Part shown: positions 6,354 to 58,054 of the stretch, piece after piece
Layout of the letters: every line of letters starts with the position of its first letter
Numbering within the stretch: the stretch's first letter is position 1
Position numbers and translations under genes: made by a program
The notes under the pieces: generated by a model
Databases searched by the model: none
The model's input: only the letters and a program-made list of their open reading frames with translations
Told to the model about the DNA's origin: nothing
DNA from: Patescibacteria group bacterium
GTDB taxonomy: Bacteria > Patescibacteriota > Patescibacteriia > UBA9570
Length of the DNA: 64,000 nt
Assembly: GCA_024277435.1 (NCBI GenBank)
Contig: JAJRVJ010000010.1
Span: 23,663-87,662 of the forward strand
Direction: 5' to 3'

Positions 6354-6354
<1 letters not shown>
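5803..6354 (-). CDS. CTP-transferase family membrane protein, CDP-archaeol synthase (CarS)/CdsA-like
   Basis: 183 aa polytopic membrane protein. GDHKTWRGF resembles the CdsA KTWEG signature. C-terminal FKRRVGIKPG...PFDQLDFVIG resembles the CarS/DUF46 motif. Confidence 0.6.
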
Positions 6355-12319: not shown

Positions 12320-12376
12320 AAAGTAGCATTACTATAACACAATGTTTAGCTGATGGCTAGGATTTTTTTGTATAAT

Positions 12377-23691: not shown

Positions 23692-23696
23692 ATATT

Positions 23697-24641: not shown

Positions 24642-24653
24642 ATGTGGATAGTA

Positions 24654-25535: not shown

Positions 25536-25536
25536 G

Positions 25537-26037: not shown

Positions 26038-26049
26038 AATGTATGCATG

Positions 26050-27495: not shown

Positions 27496-27501
27496 ATTAC
27501 A

Positions 27502-28566: not shown

Positions 28567-28574
28567 GATTATTA

Positions 28575-29846: not shown

Positions 29847-29847
29847 A

Positions 29848-31224: not shown

Positions 31225-31263
31225 AATAATAATTATAAATAGGAATAAACTGGTACCACGATA

Positions 31264-31950: not shown

Positions 31951-32019
31951 AATCTTCAATAGTATACTGGTTTGAACGTGTCTTGACAAGCTTTCATAAG
32001 GGTGATAGAATTTTCCGGT

Positions 32020-32295
32020 ATGGCACACACAAAAGCAGGCGGCTCGACTAACCTGGGTCGCGATTCAAAATCCAAACGACTTGGTATTAAACGCTACGGA
32101 GGACAAACTGTTCAACCCGGTGACATTATTGTGCGACAACGTGGTACAAAATTTCATCCAGGGCAGAATGTACGACGCGGTGAAGATGATACCCTTTACT
32201 CGGTTTCTAACGGCACTATAGCTTTCACAACTAAAAAAGTGAGAAGTTTTACAGGAAAATTAGTCCGACGTAAATATGTAAATGTTGTAGCGTAA
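32020..32295 (+). CDS. rpmA: 50S ribosomal protein L27
   Basis: [48 protein letters not shown] is canonical L27. Confidence 0.93.
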
Positions 32296-32308
32296 AATCT
32301 CAACACTC

Positions 32309-32340
32309 AAAAAAACCCCTTGTTAGTAAGGGGTTTTTTG
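32309..32340. terminator. bidirectional rho-independent terminator between convergent rpmA and pyrG
   Basis: AAAAAACCCCTTgttagtAAGGGGTTTTTT. A perfect 7-bp GC-rich stem flanked by an A-run and a T-run. Confidence 0.8.
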
Positions 32341-33996
32341 TTATTTCGAATGCTTAATGCACGCTTTCATAAATTCTAGATACAGTGGATGTGGATCTAG
32401 TGGGCGTGATTTGAATTCTGGATGGAATTGCACACCCACAAACCATGGATGATCTTTATATTCAGCAATTTCTACAAGATCCTTATCTGGATTCACTCCT
32501 GAAAATACCACTCCGGCTTCTTCTAATTGCTTGCGATACTTATTGTTAAACTCATATCGATGCCGATGCCGTTCGGATATTATTTTTTTCTTATAGGCTT
32601 TAGCAGCTATGGTATTTGGAGAAATCTTACAGTCATATGCACCTAAACGCATGGTGCCACCAAATCTATTCTCGCGGATATTATCAGCCTGGAATGGATT
32701 CACCTCAATAATAGGATGTTTTGCCTTAGGGTCCATTTCTACTGTATTTGCACCCTCTAATTTTGCCTCATTTCGTGCAATTTCAATCATTGCCAATTGC
32801 ATACCATAACACAGACCTAGGTATGGGATATTATTTTTACGAATATACTGAATAGCAGAAATAATACCTTCAACACCACGAGTGCCAAATCCTCCAGGAA
32901 CAATTACCCCATCAAATTTCTTTAGCTCTTTTAGCTTACTTGGATTTTGCTCATATTCTTCTGAGTCAATCCATGTTAGTACTGGTTGACGATTCTGTGC
33001 CCACGCTGCGTGGCGAGCGGCTTCAATAACGGAAATATACGAATCCGATAAAGTGAATTCTCCTGTGCCAAAATATTTACCAAGTACAGCTATTTTTACC
33101 TCCTGTTTAGCTGATGTAATTCTCTTCACCATCTTATTCCACTCTTGCATGTTGGTTTTTCGTGGACTCAAGTTCAGTGACTTTAATATTTTATCGCCAA
33201 GTTTTTGCTTTTCAAATGCCTGCGGCACTTTGTAAATAACATCGATATCTGGTGCAGAAATTGCATTCTCCTCCGGTATCGCGCAAAAGGTAGATAGCTT
33301 TTTCTTACGCTTATTATCAAGCGGCTGCGCAGCACGAGCAACAATAAAATCTGCCTGTATACCAGCTGAATTCAATGTGCGGCATGCATTCTGCGTTGGC
33401 TTTGTTTTCATTTCACCAACTCGAGCTGGAATTGGTAAATAACTTACTAGCACAAATGCCACATCATCGGGATTCTTCGTATGCATCATACGAGCAGCCT
33501 CTAAGAACAAGATATTCTGATATTCCCCTACTGTTCCACCAATTTCAATGATGGTTACATCAGCATCAGCGTTACGTTGTGCCTTCTTGATGCGCTTAAT
33601 AATTTCCATTGGAATATGTGGCACCACCTCTACACAAGCACCATTGTATTCTAAATTACGCTCACGCTCAATTACTGTGTTATATACACGACCAGTGGTC
33701 ATATAATTCACAGAATTGATATCAGTATTTAGGAATCTCTCGTAGTTACCAATATCTTGATCTGTTTCATCCTTGTCTTCTGTAACAAATACTTCGCCAT
33801 GCTCAGTTGGATTCATTGTGCCTGCATCCAAATTAATGTATGGATCAGCCTTGATAGCAGTTACCTTTAGCCCCTTACCTATCAAAATTCTTCCAATACT
33901 AGCACTCGTAACGCCTTTGCCTACGCTAGACATCACTCCACCTACAACGAAGATGAATTTAGGATTATGCTTTGTATTTTTAGAACTTGCGGCCAT
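32341..33996 (-). CDS. pyrG: CTP synthase
   Basis: KFIFVVGGVMSSVGKGVTSASIGRIL. C-terminal GATase with GLCYGMQ. 551 aa. Confidence 0.95.
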   Translation of the reverse strand: MAASSKNTKHNPKFIFVVGGVMSSVGKGVTSASIGRILIGKGLKVTAIKADPYINLDAGTMNPTEHGEVFVTEDKDETDQDIGNYERFLNTDINSVNYMTTGRVYNTVIERERNLEYNGACVEVVPHIPMEIIKRIKKAQRNADADVTIIEIGGTVGEYQNILFLEAARMMHTKNPDDVAFVLVSYLPIPARVGEMKTKPTQNACRTLNSAGIQADFIVARAAQPLDNKRKKKLSTFCAIPEENAISAPDIDVIYKVPQAFEKQKLGDKILKSLNLSPRKTNMQEWNKMVKRITSAKQEVKIAVLGKYFGTGEFTLSDSYISVIEAARHAAWAQNRQPVLTWIDSEEYEQNPSKLKELKKFDGVIVPGGFGTRGVEGIISAIQYIRKNNIPYLGLCYGMQLAMIEIARNEAKLEGANTVEMDPKAKHPIIEVNPFQADNIRENRFGGTMRLGAYDCKISPNTIAAKAYKKKIISERHRHRYEFNNKYRKQLEEAGVVFSGVNPDKDLVEIAEYKDHPWFVGVQFHPEFKSRPLDPHPLYLEFMKACIKHSK

Positions 33997-34001
33997 GAGA
34001 A

Positions 34002-34412
34002 CTATTCTTTATTAATGGTAAGTTTAATATTAACGGCACCGGCATCTGGAAATACAACCTCAGTTTCGTGATCACCAACAGCTTTAATACCGTCTGCAAC
34101 AATAAGCTTAGGGTCAACAGTAATTGAGTGTTGAGCTGTAAGTGCATTTGCGATATCAGCAGAAGTTACTGCTGCAAATAACTTCCCTTGCTCGTTAGCC
34201 TTTAGAGTAATCTCTACATTCATGCCCGATAGTTTTTTCTTCAATTCTTCTTGCTGCTCCTTCGTTTTAGCCTCAGCAGCTTTAGCGGCATTACGCTTTG
34301 TTTCAGAATTCTTTACCGCTTCCTTTGTAGCTGCTACTGCTAAACTATTTGGAAATAAATAATTTCGCGCATAGCCATCTGCTACGTCTTTTAATTTTCC
34401 TGTATCGTTCAT
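34002..34412 (-). CDS. rplI: 50S ribosomal protein L9
   Basis: KDVADGYARNYLFPNSLAVAATKE. The in-frame upstream codons ATA-AAA-GTA-ATA read IKVI and would complete the canonical MKVI... L9 N-terminus, so the true start may be the non-AUG codon at 34424. Confidence 0.85.
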   Translation of the reverse strand: MNDTGKLKDVADGYARNYLFPNSLAVAATKEAVKNSETKRNAAKAAEAKTKEQQEELKKKLSGMNVEITLKANEQGKLFAAVTSADIANALTAQHSITVDPKLIVADGIKAVGDHETEVVFPDAGAVNIKLTINKE

Positions 34413-34442
34413 TATTACTTTTATATGTGTACTAGTATATCA

Positions 34443-35702
34443 TTAATTAGTAAGATATTCTACCGCTCGATCAAGCTGCGGATCAAGATCGGCTTCATAG
34501 TCCTCCGCTGTCATTACAACTTCGATATCAGGTTGAATTCCCTCTTCATCGATGTTGCGACCATTTGGTGTAAACCAATGTGCTACTGTTACTTTCAAAC
34601 TAGAGTTGTCTTCAAATACCTCATAATCTTGCACGGACCCTTTACCAAAAGATTGTTCACCTATAATTGTAGCTTTGCCATAATCCTGTAATGCTCCAGC
34701 AACAATTTCAGATGCGGACGCACTTCCACGGTTAATCAGCACGGCTACAGGAATGCTATCACCAAATGAGCCAATATTTGAAGTGTAATATGGCCGTGAC
34801 GAACCATCGCTAAATCGCTCACTTACAATAACTCCATCGGAAATAAAGTGTGATGAAATCGTAATACTTTCTTCTAGTAACCCGCCTGGATTATTACGTA
34901 AGTCAACAATTAAACCATCTGGATTATCGCGCAATACCTGATTGGCAATTTCCGCAAAGTCTGCGGAAGCACCTGAATTAAAATGCGATAATGTGATAAC
35001 AGCGATGTTTTTATTATTAGCTGAGGTTGTAGTGTATTCCACGGTAGGAATTTTTATAGTATCTCGTACAATTGGAATGTCTTGTACGTCAGTATCACCT
35101 TCGCGAAAAATAGTTAGCACCACAGTAGTGCCGCGCTCTCCACGAATTAAGTTTACCGCTTCATCGAGCGACATATCATACGTATCAGTTTCGTCGATTG
35201 ATATTACATTATCACCAGCTCGTAATCCGGCCTCTTCCGCTGGAGCATTTGCTAAGGGAGCAATAATTTGTAATTGAGAATCTTCTACACCAATTTCTGC
35301 ACCGATGCCATCAAATTTTCCTGAAATATCTTCATTAAAACGTTCAGCTAACTCTGGTGAAAAATATGTGGTATATGGATCATCCACTGCCGATGTAATA
35401 CCTTCAATAGCTCCGTAGAATAAATCTTTATCATCAACTGGTTGATCAACATGTTTTGTTTTAACAGCATCCCAAACTTCCCAGAATAAATCAAAATCAA
35501 TATCACTACTCAACTCAGTATTTACTGATGACTTTATAATAGTACGTTGCAAATCATCTTTAAATACATTGCTATCTTGTACTACACCAAGCAAATATCC
35601 TCCTGCAAAACTAGCAATGCAAAATATAAGTGCTATGGATATAAATATGGAAAATGGTGCCTTACGTGCTGAATACATACGAAGCACAGTGTACCAATTC
35701 AA
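34443..35702 (-). CDS. ctpA: S41 family C-terminal processing peptidase
   Basis: N-terminal TM. PDZ domain (GLRAGDNVISID). Catalytic region GSASASEIVAGALQD. Confidence 0.88.
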   Translation of the reverse strand: MNWYTVLRMYSARKAPFSIFISIALIFCIASFAGGYLLGVVQDSNVFKDDLQRTIIKSSVNTELSSDIDFDLFWEVWDAVKTKHVDQPVDDKDLFYGAIEGITSAVDDPYTTYFSPELAERFNEDISGKFDGIGAEIGVEDSQLQIIAPLANAPAEEAGLRAGDNVISIDETDTYDMSLDEAVNLIRGERGTTVVLTIFREGDTDVQDIPIVRDTIKIPTVEYTTTSANNKNIAVITLSHFNSGASADFAEIANQVLRDNPDGLIVDLRNNPGGLLEESITISSHFISDGVIVSERFSDGSSRPYYTSNIGSFGDSIPVAVLINRGSASASEIVAGALQDYGKATIIGEQSFGKGSVQDYEVFEDNSSLKVTVAHWFTPNGRNIDEEGIQPDIEVVMTAEDYEADLDPQLDRAVEYLTN

Positions 35703-35731
35703 CCCACTAGGGTCAACCCATAAAAATAGAT

Positions 35732-36994
35732 TTATACTTTAGCACGCTTTATGTTCACACCAATGGATCGTAATCGCTTATCAATCTGCTCATATCCACG
35801 GTCGATTTGGTAAATATTGTTAATCTCAGATGTTCCTTTAGCTATTACGGCAGCAATAACCATAGCTATACCAGCGCGTAAATCTGGACTCTCAACAACT
35901 TTTGCTCGCAATGGAGTACCTCCGTGCACCGTAATGTGTTGCGGTGTATGCATATCTACTTCTGCACCCATACGATTTAGCATGTCAGTGTAAAATAATC
36001 TATTGGAATATATTGTTTCTTCCACTTCACTTTCACCAGGGATTTGCGTAAGTAATACTGTAAGTGGCGACTGACCATCCGTTGGAAATCCTGGGTACTC
36101 ACGAGTTACTACTTTAATTGGCTTCATTGTTTTCCAAGGATGTGTTGTAATACTCGTTTCTTTGATATCCAATTTTGCGCCAGCGTCTTTCAATAATTGA
36201 AGCGGAGTTTCGATGTGCTCTGGATTACATGCAGTAATTGTTAATTTGCTCTTTGCGGCTAATGCCAGATACAGAAACGATAACACCTCAATGCGATCGG
36301 GAATAATCTCACAGACACCAGCAGACAGCCGCTCTACACCCTCAATAACTATTTCATTTGTTCCTGCGCCTTCGATACGCGCTCCTTGCATATTAAGATA
36401 CTCCGCAAGCGCTTGAATCTCTGGCTCTCGGGCAGCATTTACAAGAGTTGTTTTTCCTTTAGCCAGGGTGGCGGCCATCATTAATGTTTCCGTGCATGTT
36501 ACACTTACGGTTGGAAATACAAATCGCGCACCCTTTAAGCCATTGGGTGCTGTAAATATATTAACTCCATTTTTTTCCTCATATTTAGCTCCCATCGCCT
36601 TGTAGCCCGCAATAAATAAATCAATAGGACGTCGGCCAATAGCGCAGCCGCCTGGATGCGGAAATATCACCTTACCAAAACGAGCAAGCATTGGTCCGGT
36701 TAACACAATGGATGCCCGAAGTTTGGGTACAAGCTTTTTAGGTAATTGCCGCTTAGTTATTGTTGAGGTATCAATAACGTACTTATTACGATGGGGGTGC
36801 GATATCGTAACGCCTAAATCTTCAAGTATTTCGGTAATACGAAAAATATCCTCAATTTCAGGTACATTCGTTATTGTCATGGGCTCCTCACTCAAAATAC
36901 TAGCTGCAAATACCTTCAATGCATGGTTTTTTGCACCTGTCACAGCAATTGTGCCATGTACTTTTGTTCCACCTTGTATAATAAATTTAGCCAT
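35732..36994 (-). CDS. murA: UDP-N-acetylglucosamine 1-carboxyvinyltransferase
   Basis: MAKFIIQGGTKVHGTIAVTGAKNHAL. Catalytic Cys in HPGGCAIGRRPID. Confidence 0.93.
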   Translation of the reverse strand: MAKFIIQGGTKVHGTIAVTGAKNHALKVFAASILSEEPMTITNVPEIEDIFRITEILEDLGVTISHPHRNKYVIDTSTITKRQLPKKLVPKLRASIVLTGPMLARFGKVIFPHPGGCAIGRRPIDLFIAGYKAMGAKYEEKNGVNIFTAPNGLKGARFVFPTVSVTCTETLMMAATLAKGKTTLVNAAREPEIQALAEYLNMQGARIEGAGTNEIVIEGVERLSAGVCEIIPDRIEVLSFLYLALAAKSKLTITACNPEHIETPLQLLKDAGAKLDIKETSITTHPWKTMKPIKVVTREYPGFPTDGQSPLTVLLTQIPGESEVEETIYSNRLFYTDMLNRMGAEVDMHTPQHITVHGGTPLRAKVVESPDLRAGIAMVIAAVIAKGTSEINNIYQIDRGYEQIDKRLRSIGVNIKRAKV

Positions 36995-37011
36995 GTACAA
37001 TAGATTCTAGA

Positions 37012-37929
37012 ATGACAAGACAAACCCGTCAAATTTATTTAGTGTGTTTCTTTGTTGCAGCAGCTATTGTGTTGCCGCTGATTTTATTATACAGCTCCGG
37101 ATATCGCATAAATATATCATCATTATCACTTGAACAAACTGGGAGTTTATTTATTAGTAGTCGCCCAAAAGGCGCTGAAGCTATCCTACAACCCATTGAA
37201 CACGCCGAGCTTACTCCTGCAGTTATTCCTGGATTAACGCCCGGAGAATACACCGTTACTATATCTAAAGATTTGTATACATCTTGGAATTCCAGCCTTT
37301 CTATCGAGGCTAAACGATCCATTGTATACAGTGACGTAATGCTATTTTTACTCAATCCAATCAAGGAGCCCCTCTCAACGTACCCTAATAACGACATCGT
37401 TACTTCAGAATATACTGCGGTTAACGCATTGCCTGCCCAAATGCAATATGCGTTATCTGAGTTGCCGTTATCTGATAACTACTTGATTCAGAGCGATGGT
37501 GTTCCGATGGTAACAGTACTTGATAGCGATAATGGGAATTTGTATTTATTGAATGAAACTAATGATTCTATACATATTCAACCACTTGAATCTGAGGTAC
37601 TTGGGTATGCTTGGGAACCAGAGTTAGATATTCTCATGTTTTATACCCCATTTACTATTCAACTATTCAATCCCGATGACGCATCTACGGTTTCATTAAT
37701 ACGTCAAAGTAACACTATTAACGAAGTATTATGGCATCCACAGTCACCCTATATTATCTTTTCCACAGACAAGCAAATCATTGCCATGGAAACTCGTTTA
37801 ACAGATGAACCAAATAGCGCTGTACTATATTCGGGAGAAACTGTTACGAATTTAAAAATCAATGAGGATGGCGAAACCATCTATTTCACAAATTCCGTAG
37901 GTGAAATTATTGGCCTTCAGATTCAATAG
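37012..37929 (+). CDS. membrane-anchored protein with PEGA-like domain, unknown function
   Basis: N-terminal TM. SSRPKGAEAIL resembles a PEGA motif. 305 aa. Confidence 0.45.
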   Translation: MTRQTRQIYLVCFFVAAAIVLPLILLYSSGYRINISSLSLEQTGSLFISSRPKGAEAILQPIEHAELTPAVIPGLTPGEYTVTISKDLYTSWNSSLSIEAKRSIVYSDVMLFLLNPIKEPLSTYPNNDIVTSEYTAVNALPAQMQYALSELPLSDNYLIQSDGVPMVTVLDSDNGNLYLLNETNDSIHIQPLESEVLGYAWEPELDILMFYTPFTIQLFNPDDASTVSLIRQSNTINEVLWHPQSPYIIFSTDKQIIAMETRLTDEPNSAVLYSGETVTNLKINEDGETIYFTNSVGEIIGLQIQ

Positions 37930-38785
37930 TGTGTAGATACTCTTTCACGGCATCTTGCCACGATTGCAGTTGTGGTAATTTTGTATTGATCAAGATGGAG
38001 TACTCTGGTCGCTTAGCTGGTCGCGGAAACTCTTCTGTTGCACAGGGTTGCAGATCAACACTCACATTAGCTTGAGTAAATATTTCTTTAGCAAATTCAT
38101 ACCATGTGCAACTACCTGAGTTTGTGATGTGGTACACACCATACCTCAATTCATCATTCAACATACCTACTGTTTGTTCAGCTAGATCCTTAGTATAGGT
38201 AGGGCTACCATGTTGATCATTTACAACAGATAACTCATCTTTCTCTCGACCCAACTTTAACATGGTAGTAATAAAGTTATTTCCATGTGAGCCAAATAAC
38301 CAAGCCGTTCGAATAATATAATACTTATCCCAATCTCCTTCTTGCGCTACCTCCTGAATCCCCTCTTCTCCAGCGGCTTTAGATTTTCCATAGGCATTTA
38401 CAGGATCCACATCTTTAAATGACTCCTCATAACCATCAGCTTTTTCACCGTTAAAGATGTAATCAGTACTATAATGTATTAGCACTGCATCCACTTCGGC
38501 AGCAGCCTTTGCTAAGTTGGTTGGGCCAACTCCATTAACAGACATAGCAACCGACTGATTCGTCTCACAGTCATCAACGGCAGTATACGCCGCGGCATTA
38601 ATAATAACATCAGGATTTAGTTCGGAAATAAGGGATGTAACAGTATTAGTATCAATAATATCGATATCCTCTTTATCCCAAGCTGTAACATCATATTTTG
38701 AGAAGGCTTCTTGCAGTGTGCTACCAAGCATCCCATGAGCTCCGACTATAAGTATTTTACTGTCGCTGCTCATATTGTTGTTCAT
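37907..38785 (-). CDS. rfbD: dTDP-4-dehydrorhamnose reductase
   Basis: ILIVGAHGMLGS Rossmann. YxxxK. YHITNSGSCTWYEFA. Start set to the internal Met; the ORF track extends to 38875, overlapping rfbB. Confidence 0.85.
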   Translation of the reverse strand: MNNNMSSDSKILIVGAHGMLGSTLQEAFSKYDVTAWDKEDIDIIDTNTVTSLISELNPDVIINAAAYTAVDDCETNQSVAMSVNGVGPTNLAKAAAEVDAVLIHYSTDYIFNGEKADGYEESFKDVDPVNAYGKSKAAGEEGIQEVAQEGDWDKYYIIRTAWLFGSHGNNFITTMLKLGREKDELSVVNDQHGSPTYTKDLAEQTVGMLNDELRYGVYHITNSGSCTWYEFAKEIFTQANVSVDLQPCATEEFPRPAKRPEYSILINTKLPQLQSWQDAVKEYLHTIESEGQ

Positions 38786-39776
38786 AATATTTTTGATAAT
38801 CACCGGAAGTGCAGCGCTTTGCCCATTCACGATGCTCCTTAAACCAATCGATGGTTTTTTGAATACCCTCTTCAAATGTCACACTTGGCTTCCAGCCTAG
38901 TTCTTTCGTTATCTTTGAATAGTCCATGGCATATCGCAAATCATGACCCGGACGATCTTTGACAAACTCGATAAAACTTTCATCACGACCGAGTAATTTC
39001 AATAGTAACTTAGTAACTTCCATGTTATTTTTTTCAGCACCGCCGCCGATACAATAAGTTTCACCAATCTTGCCATCGGTAATAATGCGATCAATCGCTC
39101 GACAATGATCTTCAACGTACAACCAATCACGTACATTAATCCCTTCACCATATACTGGCACCTTCTCACCTTCCAGTAAGTGTGTAATAAATAGTGGTAT
39201 CATCTTTTCTGGGAAGTGCCATGGTCCGTAATTATTCGTACAGTTACTTAATGTAACCGGCAGACCATACGTATCATGGTAAGCGCGTACTAAATGATCG
39301 GAAGCCGCTTTAGAAGCAGAGTATGGACTATGCGGATCATATCGAGTGTTCTCATCAAATTTTGTATCAGAACCTAGTTTAAGCGATCCATATACTTCAT
39401 CCGTAGAAACATGATGAAAGCGCGTTTTGTATTCTAAGGCTGCATTTAATAATACCTGCGTACCAACTGCATTAGTTTGCACAAACACGCCTGGCTCCAT
39501 AATGGAACGATCGACGTGTGATTCGGCAGCAAAATGCACAACAATATCAGCTTCATGCACAAGTGGATTCACCACTTCAGGATCACAAATGTCACCACGT
39601 ACGAACTGATAGTTTGGATTTTTTTCAACCTCAGTTAAATTCTCAAGGTTTCCTGCATAAGTAAGCTTATCAAGATTTACCACGCTATCCTCCGGATGTT
39701 CTCGCAGCCAATAGTGAATAAAATTTGATCCAATAAATCCCGCTCCTCCAGTAACAAGTAATTTCATAATTCTCAT
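38757..39776 (-). CDS. rfbB: dTDP-glucose 4,6-dehydratase
   Basis: LLVTGGAGFIGSNF. YSASKAASDHLVRAY. Extended SDR. Confidence 0.92.
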   Translation of the reverse strand: MRIMKLLVTGGAGFIGSNFIHYWLREHPEDSVVNLDKLTYAGNLENLTEVEKNPNYQFVRGDICDPEVVNPLVHEADIVVHFAAESHVDRSIMEPGVFVQTNAVGTQVLLNAALEYKTRFHHVSTDEVYGSLKLGSDTKFDENTRYDPHSPYSASKAASDHLVRAYHDTYGLPVTLSNCTNNYGPWHFPEKMIPLFITHLLEGEKVPVYGEGINVRDWLYVEDHCRAIDRIITDGKIGETYCIGGGAEKNNMEVTKLLLKLLGRDESFIEFVKDRPGHDLRYAMDYSKITKELGWKPSVTFEEGIQKTIDWFKEHREWAKRCTSGDYQKYYEQQYEQRQ

Positions 39777-40303
39777 TATTTACGTATTGATTCAGACATT
39801 CGCCATGCCGTAATAGACATACCATCGCGAACCGTATTATTGTCTATCATCTCATTAATTTCGTCAACTGATTTTTCATGAACAGTAAGCTGCTCTGTGT
39901 CATCAAGTTCTTGTTGTGTTTTTTGTAAATCACGAGCTATATACACATGGCACACTTCGTCAGACAATCCATTACATGGATAAAATACCCCTACTTTATC
40001 TAACGTTGTAGATTTATAACCAGTTTCTTCTTCAAGTTCTCGAAGTGCTCCTTGCTCGGGTGTCTCACCGTCATCAACTTTACCAGCTGGAAACTCCCAG
40101 CTATCTTGCTGCGTGAGGTAACGAAATTGCTTTGTTAATAGAGCTGTATCTGCGCTAAGCATCGGAATAATAAACACTGTGACTAATCCTCGAATAGCAT
40201 AGTACACACCCGTCTTACTGTTTGGTAATGTATATTCTTCCTTAAAAACCGAATACCATTTATTTTCAAGAACAGATTCCTTACTTAACTGTTCAAATGC
40301 CAT
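39776..40303 (-). CDS. NUDIX hydrolase
   Basis: Nudix box GKVDDGETPEQGALRELEEETGY. Confidence 0.85.
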   Translation of the reverse strand: MAFEQLSKESVLENKWYSVFKEEYTLPNSKTGVYYAIRGLVTVFIIPMLSADTALLTKQFRYLTQQDSWEFPAGKVDDGETPEQGALRELEEETGYKSTTLDKVGVFYPCNGLSDEVCHVYIARDLQKTQQELDDTEQLTVHEKSVDEINEMIDNNTVRDGMSITAWRMSESIRK

Positions 40304-40882: not shown

Positions 40883-41125
40883 TTATTTTGAATAAATTGT
40901 GAGTATTTCATCAATCATTGTCTTGCGTTTTTCTTCGCTGTCATCTGGAAACATCAATTCAATCATCTGCATAACTAGTTCTTTTTTATCAGCTGCAGAC
41001 TCATTAACATTAGTAGATAACATCTCCATTAACCCATCAAGACTCTCTAGATCCTCTTTTGAAAATGTTTTTTCTAATTCACTATCTTTTATGTGCTTCA
41101 TATATATATTATTTTTCGTCTTCAA
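40883..41125 (-). CDS. small acidic alpha-helical protein, paralog of the 15915..16214 product; overlaps the 3' end of the GGDEF gene
   Basis: 80 aa. Shared motifs with the 99-aa protein (EDLxSxD...LM, DDxEK...EE(E/K)R.T.I.EIL.Y). 17-nt overlap with the upstream gene. Confidence 0.5.
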   Translation of the reverse strand: MKTKNNIYMKHIKDSELEKTFSKEDLESLDGLMEMLSTNVNESAADKKELVMQMIELMFPDDSEEKRKTMIDEILTIYSK

Positions 41126-42650
41126 AATGAATTCTTAGTATTGCCTCAATCATCCTAGCATGTTTTTCTCCTCCAGCACCAGGAAGCATGAGAGGGATCA
41201 TTTTAGCTACCATTCCAGCCACTGCAAGATGATCTTTTTTAAATTGTACTTCTCCACCTTCAGGCATCTCACTCGCCCGCCGAGATTCACTCTCACCATC
41301 CCGTGATTCAGCCGCATCAACCGATACTCTAAATTGATTCAATACCTCTCTACTCGCTAAATAATCTGCCATGACATCAACAATTGGATCAATCACAGAC
41401 AAATCCTCTCCTGGAAATACCCTGCTCAAACCTTTCTTCGCCATGTATTTATAGTAATTAAAATCCCTGGGCGCCTTAGGTAGGGTTTCTGAAAATTGTG
41501 TTATTACCGATGTGCCAGGATGACTAGATGATAAATGTTTTGAGTGTATAGCAGCTTTATCACCATTTATCATCTCATGCTCTAATACGGGTGCGTCATG
41601 AGCCTCCTCTTTGTACAATAATGTAAATCCTATACTCGCAGTCATTGGTTTACCATCACTTCTTTTAACGGATTCAATGGCTTGTTGAAGCTTAAATAAA
41701 ATGCGCTTCACCTGAGGCGGAACATTCATGTCTACGTCATTAGAAATGATTGCCTGATCAATTGAATCGCCTGGTTTTGTCTCGGCGGTTAAATCAATAT
41801 CATTGATGATAAAAAACAACTCATCTCCTCCCGGACGCCCTTTAATATCAATGCCACGCAATGCGCCCTCAAGGGCCATTGCCATCGGGGTGAGAATATC
41901 TCGGTCTACTCCAGCGTGCCCTTCTGGATGACGCTCATTTTCCAACTTAAAATCATTTAAATCGATAACCACAACCATCATGCAGCGGTTATCCGGTCCA
42001 TGTTCTAACCTCTTTACCTCTACCTCATGTAATTTTTGAGCGTAGGCCAAGCTTCTTACAAAGCCCGTTAAGCTATCGGTGGCAGCCCGCCGTTCAAATT
42101 CTTTCCTTAGCAACAACTTGGCTTGATGTTCGGCTTTTGCTCTATAAAATGCATAGTGATCGATCTCACTCCTCATACTCTCTACTCCCTCCAAGCGTAT
42201 AGCTACCTCCTGTCGAATTTCTTCCACCTTAAGACAAATAACCTGATGCAACCTAATGTCAGATTCAACTATTAATTCCCTTTCCGGTACCATGGCATAT
42301 GCCTCCATACTCTTCCAATCAGCCTCACTCATTTCATGGCGCTTCAAAGCTTCGCTTAGTAAGCGATCATGAGCAGCTCGCTTACCACCATGCATAACGC
42401 GATCTTCTAACTCAGCTTTGATTTCAGCAGCCCGATCGGAAATTGTAAATTCACCACTGGTAAGAGTGCGATCTTCAAGAACATCTGATAATTCTGATAT
42501 TGTAGGATCCGAAGCCTGCGGATCATCAATAATAGCTTGAATACGTTCTGAGCTCGTAGTCATCTCTTCACTAACGCCTACAGCTCGTGACTCAACGCCT
42601 GGTTTTTGTGTCGGTTCTCCCCTCTTACCACTAGCGGGCTTCTTAGCCAT
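41109..42650 (-). CDS. GGDEF-domain protein (diguanylate cyclase-like, GGDEL variant with RxxD I-site), N-terminal coiled coil, C-terminal extension of about 170 aa
   Basis: DSLTGFVRSL...IDLNDFKLENERHPEGHAGVDRDIL...RGIDIKGRPGGDELFFII aligns with the GGDEF fold (D.LTGL, DxFK, GHxxGD, RxxD + 5 + GG[DE]EF). More GC-rich than its neighbours. Confidence 0.75.
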   Translation of the reverse strand: MAKKPASGKRGEPTQKPGVESRAVGVSEEMTTSSERIQAIIDDPQASDPTISELSDVLEDRTLTSGEFTISDRAAEIKAELEDRVMHGGKRAAHDRLLSEALKRHEMSEADWKSMEAYAMVPERELIVESDIRLHQVICLKVEEIRQEVAIRLEGVESMRSEIDHYAFYRAKAEHQAKLLLRKEFERRAATDSLTGFVRSLAYAQKLHEVEVKRLEHGPDNRCMMVVVIDLNDFKLENERHPEGHAGVDRDILTPMAMALEGALRGIDIKGRPGGDELFFIINDIDLTAETKPGDSIDQAIISNDVDMNVPPQVKRILFKLQQAIESVKRSDGKPMTASIGFTLLYKEEAHDAPVLEHEMINGDKAAIHSKHLSSSHPGTSVITQFSETLPKAPRDFNYYKYMAKKGLSRVFPGEDLSVIDPIVDVMADYLASREVLNQFRVSVDAAESRDGESESRRASEMPEGGEVQFKKDHLAVAGMVAKMIPLMLPGAGGEKHARMIEAILRIHFEDEK

Positions 42651-42659
42651 AAATTTTGA

Positions 42660-43394
42660 TTATGATTTATTCTTTTTGGTATGTTGAGCCACCCACTCAC
42701 GGCGCCACTCCGTTGCCTTGAATAAGCTTTCAAATGTACCGGCATCAATCCACTTACCTTCAATAGTAGATGCGGTTAACGCACCTTTTTCTAAATAGAC
42801 ATTATTAAGATCGGTAATTTCTAATTCACCACGATCGGACGCACCCAGTGTGCGAATTAAATCAAATACATGTTCGTCGTATACATAAACGCCAGTTTGA
42901 GCATAATTACTTTTTGGTTTACTCGGTTTCTCCTCAATACTCAATACATGTCCACGCTCATCCATTTCCACTACTCCGAACCGCTCTGGATCATGAACTT
43001 CTTTTACAAAAATCCTTGCGCCTGAAGCAAAGTCTTCAAAGTCCTTTTTAAAATTATGCTCATACAGATTATCGCCTAATATCATTACACAACTATCATC
43101 ACCAACAAATGTTTCTGCCAAGGCCAAGCCTTGAGCTAATCCACCTGGCTCATCTTGAATTTCATACGTAAATTTGGCGCCAAAATCCTTACCAGAACCT
43201 AAAAACATCAAAAAATCACCCGCATGGTCTGGCGCAGTAATAATTAAGATGTCTGTAATACCACCATCTAATAATGTTTTTAGGGGATAGTAGATCATTG
43301 GCTGATCATAGATTGGGAGCAACTGCTTACTAGTTACTCGAGTTAATGGGGATAAACGAGTTCCGCTACCACCAGCTAAAATAATACCTTTCAT
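42660..43394 (-). CDS. rfbA: glucose-1-phosphate thymidylyltransferase (short sugar-1-P nucleotidyltransferase)
   Basis: MKGIILAGGSGTRLSPLTRVTSKQLLPIYDQPMIYYPL. Same operon as rfbB, rfbC and rfbD. Confidence 0.85.
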   Translation of the reverse strand: MKGIILAGGSGTRLSPLTRVTSKQLLPIYDQPMIYYPLKTLLDGGITDILIITAPDHAGDFLMFLGSGKDFGAKFTYEIQDEPGGLAQGLALAETFVGDDSCVMILGDNLYEHNFKKDFEDFASGARIFVKEVHDPERFGVVEMDERGHVLSIEEKPSKPKSNYAQTGVYVYDEHVFDLIRTLGASDRGELEITDLNNVYLEKGALTASTIEGKWIDAGTFESLFKATEWRREWVAQHTKKNKS

Positions 43395-43413: not shown

Positions 43414-43650
43414 TTATATTGGTCTGTCTACGTCTTTTTTTACCACTTTACGCTGAATTATTGCAATGCCAATAACTATAATGCTACCCCAACCAATAAG
43501 ATTGATTGGAACAATCGCTGTCACAAAACCATCTAATATGATGTTGATAATAACCAATGTAAAATATACTACCGTACCCCAGACAGCGAGATCAGAAACA
43601 CATTTTTGAATTAATAGTTTACTAGCTTTTTTCATATGCTTAATTACCAA
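43414..43650 (-). CDS. small membrane protein (2 TM)
   Basis: 78-aa hydrophobic ORF between the 503-aa gene and rfbA. Confidence 0.4.
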   Translation of the reverse strand: MVIKHMKKASKLLIQKCVSDLAVWGTVVYFTLVIINIILDGFVTAIVPINLIGWGSIIVIGIAIIQRKVVKKDVDRPI

Positions 43651-45151
43651 ATAAACGATTTTTCACTCTAGGCCAAAATGTATCCCAGGTAACCGCTTCT
43701 TTTGTAGCGGTAATATGAATTGCGCGCACCTTTAAGCCTTGTGGTGATTGCTCAAGCCCTGGGGCTGACAATATAAAATCAAGCGTTGTAGGATCTTCAC
43801 GATACGCTTGAGATACATCAAATGTTGCGGTGGCTATTGTCCAACTACGTAGTCGCTCTGGAAATGTATACTGTTTTGAAATAATGTAATCTAAATTTGT
43901 AAGGCTCGCATAATGCGTAAGTGGCTCAAATCCAAACAGTGGATCGAACCAACTATTTTCATCTACACTTAATATTCCTGTGGTAATTAATTGCACATCA
44001 TTTTGAGGCACTTCAAAACTGTGAAAATAATTTGGAATTGGGTTATTCCACTGGAATGGAGCGTTATCCTTAGGGATCACGAATTCCCCATCATAAAAAT
44101 CTATTGATCCTACGCCATACTGATGTTTTGCGAGTAACGTGATGAAATGTGCGTTACTATATACTGTAGTACTGTCTGTGACAATATCCGGAATTGTATT
44201 TTGATACTCTGGCGATCCTGCTAAATGCAAGTTACCTTTAAACACAAGTTTATGTTGTGATGATGTGATATTTGTAAAAATAATATCATCATTAGCTTCT
44301 AATACAATTCGATAAATACCTTCCTTTAGATCCTTTAGCTCAACACTAGCGGTGCGCTCTCCCCGCGACACACCCGAAATACCTTCATCGCCATCATCTG
44401 CAAATTCTTGTACAGCACTGACGTTACCAACATAATACACCGTAATTTTTACTGGATCTGGCCCAGCTCCGTAATTAATATCCTGATAGGTTGCTGAAAA
44501 ACGTAAATCCTCATCTTTAATATATGTATAGAGCTCATGGCGACCACGTAAAGGTGTGGTAAATTCCGTTCCCTCCTCTGACGGCTCATAAGTTGGATCG
44601 ATAAACGGAAATTCTAGGGATGTTAAAAATGTACCTACTCTAGCATCAGTTGGTGGGGTTTCTAAAAATTCTTCTACTGAATTATATGTCGGTTCTTTTT
44701 GTAGAAGAATATAATCATCATTTTCCGTTGCATCCCAAACACTATCATCAACCAATGGATTTTCGAGTGGTTTAAAATCATAATTCCAAGCCTCTTCATC
44801 GTCGTCGAGGCGCAAACCTATCTGAACGATATTATCATCAGGATTTTGATACTCAATAGTTACCTCGGCTTCTGGATACGGACTGGGTAATTGAACAGAA
44901 AAATATATTGGGTCACCTACGAGTCGCTGATAAAACTCCCCGTTTGATGTATTTTGTTCACGGGTCAGGGCTCTACCTGATGGACCAAATTCAGAAATTA
45001 TCCCAGGCTCTTCATTGAAATAGTATGAATACGAAAATTCTCCATGAGGAGCATAGTAAATAACTAGTACATATCCCAGAATAGATACTCCTAGAATACT
45101 CAGCCCTATTCTCCACCACCACTGCAGTATACTTACGTTTTTATTAACCAT
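43640..45151 (-). CDS. membrane-anchored extracytoplasmic protein of unknown function
   Basis: 503 aa. One N-terminal TM (WWWRIGLSILGVSILGYVLVIYY) followed by a large soluble domain. First gene of the minus-strand rml operon. Confidence 0.55.
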   Translation of the reverse strand: MVNKNVSILQWWWRIGLSILGVSILGYVLVIYYAPHGEFSYSYYFNEEPGIISEFGPSGRALTREQNTSNGEFYQRLVGDPIYFSVQLPSPYPEAEVTIEYQNPDDNIVQIGLRLDDDEEAWNYDFKPLENPLVDDSVWDATENDDYILLQKEPTYNSVEEFLETPPTDARVGTFLTSLEFPFIDPTYEPSEEGTEFTTPLRGRHELYTYIKDEDLRFSATYQDINYGAGPDPVKITVYYVGNVSAVQEFADDGDEGISGVSRGERTASVELKDLKEGIYRIVLEANDDIIFTNITSSQHKLVFKGNLHLAGSPEYQNTIPDIVTDSTTVYSNAHFITLLAKHQYGVGSIDFYDGEFVIPKDNAPFQWNNPIPNYFHSFEVPQNDVQLITTGILSVDENSWFDPLFGFEPLTHYASLTNLDYIISKQYTFPERLRSWTIATATFDVSQAYREDPTTLDFILSAPGLEQSPQGLKVRAIHITATKEAVTWDTFWPRVKNRLFGN

Positions 45152-45159
45152 TACTAACT

Positions 45160-45189
45160 ACTATACAGACCAACCTGCAGCCTTGTCAA
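45160..45189 (-). promoter_or_regulatory. sigma70-type promoter for the minus-strand operon (503-aa gene through rfbD), leaderless
   Basis: On the minus strand, TTGACA (45184-45189), 18-nt spacer, TATAGT (45160-45165), then ATG at 45151 only 8 nt downstream. Confidence 0.55.
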
Positions 45190-45233: not shown

Positions 45234-46154
45234 ATGTATAGTATTGTTGTTCCAATTTATAACGAATCCGGTAATGTTCGTGAGTTACATAAGCGTTTAG
45301 TTTCGGTGTGTTCGGCATTGGGCGAATATGAATTGATTTTTGTTGATGATGGCAGCTCAGATGGAACTAGCAAGATTCTTAAAGAACTATCTCCTGTTGA
45401 GGTTATTACGTTTAGGAAAAATTTTGGACAAACCGCAGCCCTTGATGCCGGCATCAAGCACGCTAAAGGCGAATACATCATTACGATGGATGCGGATTTA
45501 CAAAATCCACCTGAAGAAATTCCTAAACTGGTAAAAGCCATGAAAGAACAAGGTGTTGATGTAGTTTCTGGCTGGCGTAAAAATCGAAAAGATACCACAA
45601 TGAAACGCTTCGTATCACGCGGTGCTAACGCATTACGTAAATTATTTATTGATGATGGCATTCATGACTCTGGATGCACGTTAAAGATTTATCGAAAGTA
45701 TTGCTTTGAGCAGTTCGATTTATTTGGAGAAATTCATCGCTTTATTCCAGGAATGTTACGATGGCAAGGTTATAGTATCGGTGAAACAGTAGTTGAGCAC
45801 GCCGCTCGAAAATCTGGCACTTCAAAATATGGATGGAAGCGCATCGTTAAAGGTCTAGTAGATATGATAGGTGTGTGGTTCTGGCGCAAATACTCAACTC
45901 GACCACTTCATTTATTTGGTGGCACTGGTCTCACATTTTCATTTATCGGAATGATCGGATTGGCACTGCTAGCATTCGCGCGTATCTTCTTTGCCTACTC
46001 ACTATCGAATAGCATTTGGCCATTAATTTCAATTCTTTTTGTGTTAGTTGGATTACAATTATTGATATCTGGTTTATTAGCAGATATTACTATAAAAAAT
46101 TACTACCAAAATGATCGGCGCCCCTATAAAATTAAGCGCGTTGATCACCAATAA
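45234..46154 (+). CDS. polyprenyl-phosphate glycosyltransferase, GT2 family (GtrB/ArnC/DPM1-like)
   Basis: IVVPIYNESGNV...ELIFVDDGSSDGT...MDADLQNPPEEIP plus two C-terminal TM helices. Confidence 0.85.
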   Translation: MYSIVVPIYNESGNVRELHKRLVSVCSALGEYELIFVDDGSSDGTSKILKELSPVEVITFRKNFGQTAALDAGIKHAKGEYIITMDADLQNPPEEIPKLVKAMKEQGVDVVSGWRKNRKDTTMKRFVSRGANALRKLFIDDGIHDSGCTLKIYRKYCFEQFDLFGEIHRFIPGMLRWQGYSIGETVVEHAARKSGTSKYGWKRIVKGLVDMIGVWFWRKYSTRPLHLFGGTGLTFSFIGMIGLALLAFARIFFAYSLSNSIWPLISILFVLVGLQLLISGLLADITIKNYYQNDRRPYKIKRVDHQ

Positions 46155-46157
46155 TAT

Positions 46158-47330
46158 ATGAACGCCCTGGTGATCGCGCCAACGCCATATTTTTCAGATC
46201 GCGGTTGCCACATACGCATTATTGAAGAAATTACTGCACTGGTTGATGCTGGACATACACCTGTTGTGTATACCTACCATTTAGGTCGCGACGAAGGACC
46301 TGTGCAGATATATCGTACGGTACGTGTGCCATGGTATACAAAAACAGCCGCTGGCCCATCACTACATAAACTATATGTAGATCTATTATTGCTATGGAAA
46401 ATACTACGAACCGCAAAAAAACATAATTTTGATATTATTCACGCCCACCTTCACGAAGGCGCCTGGATAGGCTGGTTTATTAAGCATTGGTTGCGCATCC
46501 CACTAATACTAGATGCTCAAGGTAGTTTGGTTGGTGAATTGCGCAGTCACGCATTTTTCAAGGTACCTGGATTGCGCACTGTGTTTACATTCATTGAAGG
46601 TTGGATTGTGCGACGAGCTGATCATATCTTTACCAGCTCGCAAGCAGCCTACCAATTTATTGGTGAGTATTTTCCAGAAGTAAAACCAAAACTTTCTATG
46701 TTAGGTGATGCTGTTTCCGTACCATCATTTAGCACTGTTTCTGATGACGCTGTTACCAAAATTGCAAGTGAGCTTGATATCGATCAAACTAAACCAGTAG
46801 TAATGTATACTGGCGGATTATCCAAAATCAAGGGAATTGATTTACTATTAGACGCCATACCTAAGGTACTTGAATCTGCTCCGGACACTCAGTTCGTTAT
46901 TATTGGCTACCCAGACATCGATCGTTGTAAAGCGATTGTAAAAAATTTGAATGTACACAACGCCGTGCGCTTCCCTGGTAGGGTGAACTACTTTGATTTG
47001 CCAACCTATTTGCGATTAGCAGATATTGCTATTGATCCCAAACCGAGCGGCGCTGGTGAAGCAAGCGGTAAGCTATTGAACTACATGGCTGCCGGACTTC
47101 CTGTTGTGGCATTTGATTCGGTGAATGCACGAGATATGCTAGCAGATTGTGGATCCTTAGTAAGTGATGAACATAGCCCGGCCCTAGCTAACTCTATTGT
47201 TGAATTACTTAACGACACTGCGAAAGCTGAGATGCTTGGTAAGAAAGCGCTACAACGTATTGCTACCGAATACTCATGGCAAGAGCGCATTAAACACGCA
47301 AGTACCATCTATGAGCAACTCACAAAATAA
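46158..47330 (+). CDS. GT4 family (GT-B) glycosyltransferase
   Basis: C-terminal EX7E-like motif EASGKLLNYMAAGLPVV. Glycos_transf_1-like architecture. Confidence 0.8.
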   Translation: MNALVIAPTPYFSDRGCHIRIIEEITALVDAGHTPVVYTYHLGRDEGPVQIYRTVRVPWYTKTAAGPSLHKLYVDLLLLWKILRTAKKHNFDIIHAHLHEGAWIGWFIKHWLRIPLILDAQGSLVGELRSHAFFKVPGLRTVFTFIEGWIVRRADHIFTSSQAAYQFIGEYFPEVKPKLSMLGDAVSVPSFSTVSDDAVTKIASELDIDQTKPVVMYTGGLSKIKGIDLLLDAIPKVLESAPDTQFVIIGYPDIDRCKAIVKNLNVHNAVRFPGRVNYFDLPTYLRLADIAIDPKPSGAGEASGKLLNYMAAGLPVVAFDSVNARDMLADCGSLVSDEHSPALANSIVELLNDTAKAEMLGKKALQRIATEYSWQERIKHASTIYEQLTK

Positions 47331-51441: not shown

Positions 51442-53253
51442 CCTCTTCGTTAAGAACGAATTGTGGCGCAGAATTTTAATATTTCCATACTCCTCAACTA
51501 GTGAGTAGTTGTTTTTTATATACTTTTGTATCCGAGCATGACGACTGGTTCGAAATAATGAACGAGTTCGCTCATCCTGAATGATATATTCTATTTTTTC
51601 ATCACTAAGATATTCTTGAATTTCAGAAATCGATGGAATAACATTATATGGATCATATGATTTTGGATCATTCGCCTCTGGTATATACACCACTGGATGC
51701 GTGATATTTAATGCCAGTGGCCTACCAGAACGCAATGCAAAAAATGGTACGGCAGTGAATATTTCATCTGTTGGATTGGTATGCGCTTGAATGTATTCAA
51801 CAACATTCCAAGCGTGCCTTACCTCCATCTCAGTTGATGGATTAAATCGCTTCGCATTTTTAGTAACCTTTGGAAAGATAATGAAACTACAAGTCAAAAA
51901 TATAGCTGCCAAAGCAAGTAATTGCTTACTATACTGCGTACGATTTTTCCAAAGAGCCGCATATATTACCGCACCACCTAGCACAAAGCTAAATGCGTAA
52001 TTATACGCATATGTTGGCAGCCAATCACTATAAGTGAGAGATGCTGCAAACATAACCGTTACAGGCAATATTAATACCCCATATTGCCACACGGTAATAT
52101 CTAGCGTAAGCCGCTTATGTTTTTTCCAAAACACTATAGCAGCAATGATTATTGCTATTATCAAACTGATAAAATACCAGCTCCCCTGTGCAGTAAACGC
52201 TAAACTTGGCCCACGTGACGGATGGAATGTTCCAGCAATAATCACATACGCAAGTAATAGAGCCGCTGAATAGACAATTGGCCGCACAATGCTGATGTGC
52301 TTTTTAAATAGTTGAATCCCTCCAATTACCACGAGGCTCATAAATGGAATTATTAACCAACCGCCAATTCTTGCAAAATCATGTATTACACCTATCTTGG
52401 TTGCAATATCGGGCTGCTGCTTATAGACAAATAATACCAACAGCGCAAGATATATCGGCACTGCCAGACAGGTTAACTTACTAACATCATCGCGGATTTT
52501 AGAAAAAATTATACTAGCAATCACCCCTCCAGTTAGTGCGCCAATTAACCCATACACTAGCCCATTAGCTAAATACACATCAGACATCCAGCGCCAATCG
52601 GTGATGACCACAAAATACAATACCGGACCCAGCATAGCTATTCCTAATCCTGAGGAAAACATAATTACGGAAATTATGTTGCGCTGTAAAGAAATTTTCT
52701 TATCCTCAAATAATTGATAGGCAATAAATATTACCATCACTATACCCCATACAATGTAGGCACGATATGATAATACTCCCAGCCCTAAACAGGCTCCACT
52801 AATCAATAACCACCAATTTGAGTGACGTTCTTTCCAGATCAGTAATAATAATATTGCTGCATATAAACCCAAGTCAGAAAATCCTCGTACTTGAAATATT
52901 GCCAGACCAATAGTGGCTAAAGCGGTAATGGTAAAATTATTGAATAACTTATGTGCAGACCACCCAAATAGATACAGTGCTGCACCAGACGCAATTGCAA
53001 CCAGTAATTGCAGGAACTTCACATGTACACCAAATAGCGCTATAGCACCGGCATACACATACAATATAACAATGGATCGAGTAAATAACTCTTTAAATGG
53101 AACAACGCCTTCTGCAACAAGTTTAGCATCATAGATCAAATTATCACTCTCAAAATTAATAATCTCATTTTCAAACCAGAAAATCTGAATAGCATATACA
53201 ACAAAGTATAGTAATACGATTGCTAATAATATATAGTGCTCTTTTCTCTTCAT
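51406..53253 (-). CDS. polytopic membrane protein, putative GT-C fold glycosyltransferase with C-terminal extracytoplasmic domain
   Basis: 615 aa, about 13 TM helices, then a soluble domain of about 170 aa. Adjacent to a PMT/ArnT-like gene. Confidence 0.5.
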   Translation of the reverse strand: MKRKEHYILLAIVLLYFVVYAIQIFWFENEIINFESDNLIYDAKLVAEGVVPFKELFTRSIVILYVYAGAIALFGVHVKFLQLLVAIASGAALYLFGWSAHKLFNNFTITALATIGLAIFQVRGFSDLGLYAAILLLLIWKERHSNWWLLISGACLGLGVLSYRAYIVWGIVMVIFIAYQLFEDKKISLQRNIISVIMFSSGLGIAMLGPVLYFVVITDWRWMSDVYLANGLVYGLIGALTGGVIASIIFSKIRDDVSKLTCLAVPIYLALLVLFVYKQQPDIATKIGVIHDFARIGGWLIIPFMSLVVIGGIQLFKKHISIVRPIVYSAALLLAYVIIAGTFHPSRGPSLAFTAQGSWYFISLIIAIIIAAIVFWKKHKRLTLDITVWQYGVLILPVTVMFAASLTYSDWLPTYAYNYAFSFVLGGAVIYAALWKNRTQYSKQLLALAAIFLTCSFIIFPKVTKNAKRFNPSTEMEVRHAWNVVEYIQAHTNPTDEIFTAVPFFALRSGRPLALNITHPVVYIPEANDPKSYDPYNVIPSISEIQEYLSDEKIEYIIQDERTRSLFRTSRHARIQKYIKNNYSLVEEYGNIKILRHNSFLTKRSKAKSKDNGNN

Positions 53254-56430: not shown

Positions 56431-56432
56431 TT

Positions 56433-58052: not shown

Positions 58053-58054
58053 AC

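Follow-up and report, generated by a model that had tools for sequence, protein, structure and literature searches.

Introduction

The closest described counterparts of the gene reported here, in fold or in genetic setting, are the diguanylate cyclases of the PleD and WspR type, the Bacillus subtilis cyclase DgcP, the receptors PelD, PssE and YdaK of polysaccharide operons, and SiaD. The gene lies at positions 41109 to 42650, on the minus strand, of a 64,000-nucleotide stretch of DNA from a Patescibacteria group bacterium (assembly GCA_024277435.1, contig JAJRVJ010000010.1, positions 23,663 to 87,662), which in its whole length we call the window. It encodes a predicted soluble protein of 513 aa with a GGDEF domain, and it stands between rfbA and rfbC in a string of genes for dTDP-rhamnose synthesis (rml, or rfb, genes).

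With the PleD and WspR type the 513-aa protein shares the fold, the metal- and guanine-binding residues and the K442-type lysine, an RxxD motif five residues before the signature and a long helix before the domain. It differs in its GGDEL signature, in the R446 position and the NRR turn, which are not conserved, and in a 25-aa insertion after the signature strand; its input is a helical domain rather than REC, PAS or GAF, it has an extra conserved C-terminal helical module, and its sequence match to these enzymes is weak (~18-24% identity). DgcP is likewise soluble and, according to PMC5422440, its motif GGEEL carries Leu at the fifth position while the enzyme still supplies cyclic di-GMP (c-di-GMP) in vivo, but DgcP has a GAF input, sits outside sugar-nucleotide operons and is not close in sequence. 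PelD, PssE and YdaK are also GGDEF-domain proteins with an intact RxxD, encoded inside polysaccharide biosynthesis gene strings. They are membrane-anchored, with decayed catalytic residues, and rely on cyclases encoded elsewhere, whereas the 513-aa protein appears soluble, keeps the catalytic set and lies among sugar-nucleotide (rml) genes, not beside a synthase. SiaD (NF038266) is the best full-length NCBIfam equivalog match and, like the 513-aa protein, has a helical N-terminus followed by GGDEF; however, only the GGDEF part aligns (residues 181-306) and there is no SiaABC partner context around the gene. Membership in SiaD was rejected, the score being 41 bits against a cutoff of 290.

We favour, with moderate confidence and on comparative grounds, the reading that the protein is a functional, product-inhibited diguanylate cyclase co-expressed with rhamnose and surface-glycan genes and plausibly feeding its signal into them. 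Nothing in the literature that we searched describes the architecture, the restriction to a single clade of the Candidate Phyla Radiation (CPR) or the conserved position after rfbA and before rfbC. Signalling by second messengers has hardly been explored in CPR/Patescibacteria; that literature touches on it in one place only, a paper that counts diguanylate cyclase genes and compares attached with planktonic ultra-small cells (PMC9938205). A conserved GGDEF gene that seems catalytically competent and lies in a CPR surface-glycan cluster is a concrete entry point, which lets one ask how minimal-genome episymbionts regulate their surface and attachment; should the cyclase prove to be an ordinary one without a special target, a modest annotation refinement would be left.

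Architecture and fold of the GGDEF protein

The gene and the parts of its product are as follows.

41109..42650, minus strand: GGDEF-family gene, 513 aa with an ATG start, coordinates including the stop codon (open reading frame, ORF, read from the window)
42096..42566, minus strand: N-terminal all-helical domain, residues 29-185, family-specific (helices of the AlphaFold2 model, AF2)
41496..42095, minus strand: GGDEF (Palm) domain, residues 186-385 (PleD alignment and AF2; predicted local distance difference test, pLDDT, mostly >90)
41817..41858, minus strand: inhibitory site (I-site) RGID, residues 265-268, five-residue spacer IKGRP, and active site (A-site) GGDEL, residues 274-278 (translation)
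41718..41792, minus strand: 25-aa insertion, residues 287-311, after the strand that follows GGDEL (alignment; pLDDT dips to 69)
41298..41495, minus strand: family-conserved C-terminal helices, residues 386-451 (alignments; AF2 helices 397-411 and 417-451, pLDDT 80-94)
41112..41297, minus strand: lineage-specific C-terminal tail, residues 452-513 (pLDDT 41-69; unalignable to the relatives P0002 and P0048)

Profile matches to the GGDEF domain exceed their cutoffs in both Pfam (PF00990, 37.6 bits, E 2.4e-9, cutoff 23.8) and TIGR00254 (44 bits, cutoff 37.4). The Pfam match is partial, covering profile positions 1-97 of 161, and ends at residue 291 because the 25-aa insertion interrupts the domain. 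The insertion is found in the clade of the window and in that of P0053-56, and in neither PleD nor the remaining members of the alignment. Past the Pfam match the domain continues to about residue 385, with an SIGF strand (338-346) and then the helix that bears K371.

A monomer model built by AF2 from 17 family sequences has a mean pLDDT of 81.6, with values >90 over most of residues 190-385. Foldseek, run with this model against the PDB, gave 84 matches at E <= 1e-3; the best 50 of the 84 were all GGDEF-domain proteins, nearly all of them annotated as diguanylate cyclases, and the fold was assigned with a probability of 1.00. Template modelling scores (TM-scores) to isolated GGDEF domains, normalised by target, were 0.73-0.79 (3ign 0.79, 4zve 0.78, 4wxw 0.76, also 7a7e). 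We found no transmembrane segment in the 513-aa protein, the maximal Kyte-Doolittle score over 19 residues being 1.52, at residue 475, below the typical threshold; the C-terminal tail is mildly hydrophobic near this residue. The first-pass annotation, made from the sequence alone, had called the product a cytoplasmic GGDEF-domain protein, with which the profile scores, the predicted fold and the hydropathy all agree.

The N-terminal domain is modelled as helices at residues 29-42, 51-60, 65-85, 89-104, 109-119, 129-152 and 157/160-190. The last of these, a long helix from about residue 157 to 190, closes the domain and leads straight to DxLTG, with which the GGDEF domain begins. In regulated cyclases, as the structures of PleD, WspR and DgcB show, this is where the dimerising stalk is usually found. 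R84 of the N-terminal domain is invariant in a 13-member family alignment. Modelled separately, the domain reached a pLDDT of 79.5; it had no Foldseek match in the PDB (best E 0.75, TM < 0.37), no PDB sequence match (a virion protein came closest in a profile search, at E 0.058) and no Pfam match.

Beyond the GGDEF domain the first-pass annotation had placed a C-terminal extension of 170 residues with no recognisable motif. An extension is there, but it shrinks to about 125 aa when the insertion and the last strand and helix are counted as parts of the domain, and about half of it (residues 386-451) is conserved family-wide. Its helices carry the motif D-F-x-Y-Y-K-x-x-x-K-K-G-L-x-R-V-F-P-x-E-D-L, in which R410 is nearly invariant. 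By sequence and model, then, the product is predicted to be a soluble GGDEF-domain protein whose N- and C-terminal modules match no known fold.

Active-site and I-site residues

The GGDEF sequence of PleD, verified against the PDB, was aligned with 19 family members, which share 17-50% identity. The correspondence of PleD residues to those of the window protein, and their conservation in the family, was:

PleD D327: D230, 19/19 members, Mg2+ ligand
PleD K332: K235, 19/19 members
PleD N335: N238, 19/19 members, guanine recognition
PleD D344: D249, 18/19 members, guanine recognition
PleD RxxD I-site: R265-D268, 15/19 members
PleD R366: R272, 16/19 members
PleD G368-G369-E370-E371: G274-G275-D276-E277, GGDE in 19/19 members, D276 standing at the Mg2+ ligand E370
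PleD F372: L278 in the window protein
PleD K442: K371, 18/19 members, phosphate binding

The alignment with PleD, a check that the first-pass annotation had proposed, thus retains the metal-binding Asp/Glu residues in a domain whose fold is GGDEF; the RGID motif falls, as that annotation had it, exactly five residues before GGDEL. The column of PleD R390 is basic in 15 of the 19 members, with Lys in the window protein.

The conservation of this set is set against rapid divergence elsewhere, the GGDEF protein being the fastest-evolving product of the operon: its orthologs are 27-48% identical to the window copy, versus 73-83% for rfbA and 68-81% for rfbB. That the catalytic residues survive in such a gene argues for selection on catalysis.

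The fifth residue of the motif is free to vary, being F in 11 members, L in six (in two separate subclades), M in one and I in one. Canonical GGDEF is found in the orthologs P0002, P0049, P0051, P0053-56, P0061 and P0070, of which P0002, at 49% identity, is the closest to the window protein. Among generic GGDEF proteins a residue other than Phe is rare here (8 of ~290 motifs, in ~260 proteins collected). Leu at this position is probably a tolerated variant of the hydrophobic core in this family, and GGDEL and GGDEM motifs are elsewhere regarded as possibly retaining restricted activity (PMC12900916). With F, L, M and I in one orthologous family, and with both an empty site and a relocated sister clade (below), the family is a natural experiment on the fifth GGDEF residue.

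The same alignment bears on whether a GGDEF-fold enzyme here might make something else, such as a Hypr-type cyclic GMP-AMP (cGAMP) or another nucleotide, or might be a structural scaffold for the Rml enzymes. The unusual N- and C-terminal modules of no known fold, the adjoining genes for a nucleotidyltransferase and a Nudix hydrolase, and the lack of conservation at R446 would suit such roles. The position of PleD D344, however, is Asp in 18 of 19 members (Asp249 here) and not Ser as in Hypr GGDEFs, N335 is invariant, and catalytic residues that never vary are not something that a scaffold requires. PADLOC, moreover, gave no defence-system match for the GGDEF protein, nor for the small acidic ORF, the 503-aa protein or the 78-aa protein of the same gene string. 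We consider another product or a scaffold role very unlikely. A defence-cyclase reading was rejected in view of the same PADLOC result; the Nudix protein had only a weak candidate match (PDC-S07, 40 bits).

The family and its distribution

Relatives were sought by a word-indexed search of 5.8 billion proteins and by comparing a profile exhaustively with 1.84 billion cluster representatives. The former returned as close relatives only P0002 (49% identity) and P0003 (46%), the rest being generic GGDEF proteins at E ~1e-6; in the latter, ~15 representatives matched both the N-terminal region and the GGDEF domain (P0047-P0056, P0061, P0070). They share an architecture in which ~150-190 aa of helical N-terminal sequence precede the GGDEF domain and a C-terminal helix-loop-helix with a motif of the K-K-G-L-x-R-x-F-P type follows it. 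A word-indexed search with a profile of 13 family members yielded no new members, its output being swamped by generic PAS-GGDEF proteins, and a scan of genome contigs with three close homologs found nothing.

For finding related loci we used as a lineage marker the 503-aa protein encoded nearby, whose relatives in GTDB representative genomes are, some evident placeholder names apart, assigned to Candidatus Kerfeldbacteria or to the Patescibacteria group. To judge from these neighbours, the window too comes from the Kerfeldbacteria lineage of the CPR. A scan of metagenome contigs with this neighbour gave only the locus L011 again (as L021). The family is small and fast-evolving, and is found only in Kerfeldbacteria-like Patescibacteria.

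One relative, P0003 (350 aa, locus L002, on a 3.2-kb contig), is a truncated copy that diverges from the full-length P0042 after about residue 329. Past the point of divergence, at 2775-3203 of L002, is an ORF beginning MKISVITLFPEMF, which may be TrmD-like. The truncated copy is likely an assembly chimera or a rearrangement.

The rhamnose gene string and the glycan cluster

Around the GGDEF gene, rmlA, rmlB, rmlC and rmlD are co-oriented and contiguous, and the ORFs and profile matches agree with the gene order read by the first-pass annotation, including the place of the GGDEF gene between rfbA and rfbC. In the direction of transcription the other elements are:

45160..45189, minus strand: TTGACA-18-TATAGT, ahead of the 503-aa gene, the sequence that best fits a sigma-70-like promoter, at 11/12 (consensus match only)
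43640-45151, minus strand: gene that opens the string, for a 503-aa protein whose hydrophobic N-terminal segment is predicted to lie in the membrane (no Pfam or NCBIfam match)
43414-43650, minus strand: small membrane ORF, 78 aa (conserved in L001-L004 and L010)
42660-43394, minus strand: rfbA/rmlA, short form of 244 aa, directly upstream of the GGDEF gene (PF00483, 209 bits)
40883-41125, minus strand: small acidic ORF, 80 aa; the likely true start, ATG at 41101, gives 72 aa
40307-40861, minus strand: rfbC/rmlC-like epimerase (PF00908, 64.8 bits)
39776-40303, minus strand: Nudix hydrolase, NudE-like (PF00293, 69.4 bits; NF008736, 72 bits, below cutoff)
38757-39776, minus strand: rfbB/rmlB, dTDP-glucose 4,6-dehydratase (PF16363, 290.7 bits)
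37907-38875, minus strand: rfbD/rmlD reductase, true start probably internal (PF04321, 318 bits, residues 40-317)

The gap from rfbA to the GGDEF gene is 9 bp, and the other junctions of the string overlap or are separated by <=25 bp. Promoter-like sites in the region are no more numerous than expected from shuffled sequence. RmlA and RmlC are divergent and fall below the NCBIfam equivalog cutoffs (rfbA versus TIGR01207, 289 bits, cutoff 360, profile positions 1-235 of 286; rfbC versus TIGR01221, 57.6 bits, cutoff 155.75), so that dTDP-rhamnose as the product follows from family membership and is not certain.

The rml string forms part of a wider surface-glycan cluster in the window, of which it is one arm and which comprises glycosyltransferase (GT) genes of families GT2 (45234-46154) and GT4 (46158-47330), a Wzx-type flippase, three further GT2-like genes, a PMT-like GT-C, three tandem PF01663 paralogs and a CDP-alcohol phosphatidyltransferase. 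The PF01663 paralogs (type I phosphodiesterase/nucleotide pyrophosphatase, alkaline-phosphatase superfamily), of 532-539 aa each, occupy 54832-59656 on the plus strand and adjoin the PMT-like GT-C at 53250-54758; they may be glycan-decorating transferases.

Placement of the gene in related loci

Directly after rfbA the GGDEF gene is found in 11 loci, namely the window, L001, L003-L007 and L010-L013 (L011 is identical to L021), and the truncated copy in L002 has the same position. Most of these rfbA-GGDEF junctions are very tight, with a gap of <=9 bp or a 4-bp overlap. The common neighbourhood consists of the 503-aa protein, whose orthologs head the cluster in all related loci, a small transmembrane ORF, rfbA, the GGDEF gene, rfbC and the Nudix gene where present, rfbB and rfbD; beyond rfbD come a PEGA protein, encoded on the opposite strand, and then MurA. 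The placement of the GGDEF gene after rfbA is a conserved trait of a Kerfeldbacteria clade and not a peculiarity of one genome. A recent horizontal insertion was rejected, the GC content being only slightly raised (0.41-0.43 versus ~0.39) and the position inherited across the clade.

The Nudix gene is present in L009, which has no GGDEF gene, and absent from L006, L007 and L011-L013, which have one. Since their patterns of presence differ, the two accessory genes are not co-inherited.

Proposed function and the evidence against it

In the mechanism that we propose, two GGDEF domains would be brought together by the long helix and the helical N-terminal domain. Of each GTP the guanine would be bound by N238 and D249, the phosphates by K235 and K371 and the Mg2+ by D230, D276 and E277, with chemistry like that of PleD, and the GGDEF pair would condense two GTP into c-di-GMP. 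The product may then bind back at R265/D268 and at the basic residue that stands in the column of PleD R390, capping output. The GGDEF gene is presumably co-transcribed with rfbA, rfbC, rfbB, rfbD and the adjacent glycosyltransferase/flippase cluster, whereby the signal would be made together with the rhamnose-glycan machinery. The c-di-GMP probably acts on the production or attachment of cell-surface glycan, through an effector that would lie outside the window or be of an unrecognised type.

Observations of several kinds weigh against this reading. In the protein itself, the position of PleD R446, a phosphate contact, is Thr here and variable in the family, in a part of the alignment that has a 5-residue insertion, and the NRR of the DxLTGLxNRR 'wide-turn' is degenerate (VRS in the window protein) and not conserved in the family. 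The first-pass annotation had asked whether GGDEL variants occur among characterised active cyclases, and the published answers differ. PMC5422440 describes DgcP, with GGEEL, as synthesising c-di-GMP and as restoring c-di-GMP-dependent exopolysaccharide (EPS) production in a triple dgc mutant, whereas PMC4331095, citing WspR mutagenesis, states that cyclase activity is lost when Leu replaces the Phe of the motif.

The departure from GG(D/E)EF, the loss of the R446 equivalent and the degenerate turn, together with an intact RxxD and a basic residue at the R390 position, would also be expected of a catalytically dead GGDEL domain that senses c-di-GMP (or GTP) via RxxD and activates the neighbouring glycan machinery. 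Precedents for such receptors in EPS operons are YdaK (PMC5422440), PelD (PMC7112168) and PssE (PMC4125290). We nevertheless hold a pure receptor to be rather unlikely. The residues that bind metal and guanine vary little or not at all among members with 17-50% identity, and several orthologs have canonical GGDEF. In the subclade P0053-P0056 an insertion has abolished the I-site spacing while the catalytic residues are kept, which is the opposite of what a receptor-only role would lead one to expect. The known receptors of this kind are membrane-anchored, with decayed A-sites, while no transmembrane segment was detected in the 513-aa protein; and a receptor needs a separate cyclase, of which none was seen in the window. 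The comparative evidence leans towards an active enzyme.

As to partners, the Pfam search of window ORFs of at least 120 aa (E <= 1e-3, 64 kb) found no EAL, HD-GYP or PilZ domain, in line with the first-pass annotation, which had seen none, and no Rfam family, c-di-GMP riboswitches included, reached its gathering threshold in the 64-kb window. In a bolder version of our proposal, which we offer as a speculation and judge improbable as it stands, episymbiont genomes of ~0.6-1 Mb would encode a minimal c-di-GMP circuit that dispenses with canonical EAL, HD-GYP and PilZ and has this protein as its only cyclase; the helical modules of the protein would dock it onto RmlA or a glycosyltransferase of the cluster, and a local signal to a new type of effector would gate rhamnose-glycan synthesis and hence host attachment.

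A further group of observations concerns the setting of the gene. In L009 (Kerfeldbacteria metagenome-assembled genome, MAG, JACPGK01, 11690-12973), rfbA is followed by rfbC after a 9-bp gap, and there is no GGDEF gene in 21 kb. This locus is as close to the window as are the GGDEF-bearing L005-L013 (rfbA 75%, MurA 70%), and its string rfbA-rfbC-Nudix-rfbB-rfbD is intact. In the sister subclade P0050/P0051/P0052 the gene is placed after flavokinase-ribE-ribH, at the end of a riboflavin operon, in three loci (L023, 6659-9128; L022, 3440-6033; L008), and the case for a strict functional tie to rhamnose is the weaker for it; the MAG of L023 also contains L015, a glycan locus without the gene. Lastly, 23011-37000 of the window is wholly on the minus strand, and the long polycistronic strings of the window mix unrelated housekeeping genes over many kb. 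Because co-directional strings in CPR mix unrelated functions in this way, co-transcription is weak evidence of functional coupling.

These facts of placement could be explained by an active cyclase that is a general, perhaps the sole, source of c-di-GMP, whose targets have nothing to do with rhamnose or glycan and whose location among the rml genes is mere inertia of gene order. We regard this too as doubtful: the adjacency to rfbA outlasts divergence of the protein to 27-31% identity, and its junctions are translationally coupled, while the Nudix gene and rfbC come and go; control of surface polysaccharides, moreover, is the commonest c-di-GMP output in other phyla. Below the favoured reading of an active, product-inhibited cyclase tied to glycan synthesis we rank the degenerate I-site receptor, then inherited gene order, and then, as unlikely, another product or a scaffold.

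The small acidic ORF

The last 29 aa of the small acidic ORF align with the tail of the GGDEF protein (41112-41200, minus strand) with 13 of 29 residues identical (45%; BLASTP, E 4e-7). The alignment score of 56 was reached in 0 of 5000 shuffles. The similarity was seen in the pairwise test only and was not recovered by a window-wide tblastn. In L001, L003 and L004 the ORF is absent, and the gaps between the GGDEF gene and rfbC are there 22-39 bp. Given the shared C-terminus, and given that the closest relatives lack the ORF, it seems to have arisen locally, when the 3′ end of the GGDEF gene was partly duplicated in tandem.

Other features of the window

No rRNA or tRNA was found in the window. 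An ORF of 1181 aa with no Pfam match, at 12377-15922 on the minus strand, lies in a bump of GC content (0.47 at 13-14 kb, versus ~0.39 for the window). A 183-aa protein, encoded at 5803-6354 on the minus strand, matches the family of CarS-like CDP-archaeol synthases (PF01864, 98.7 bits) in what is apparently a bacterial (CPR) genome.

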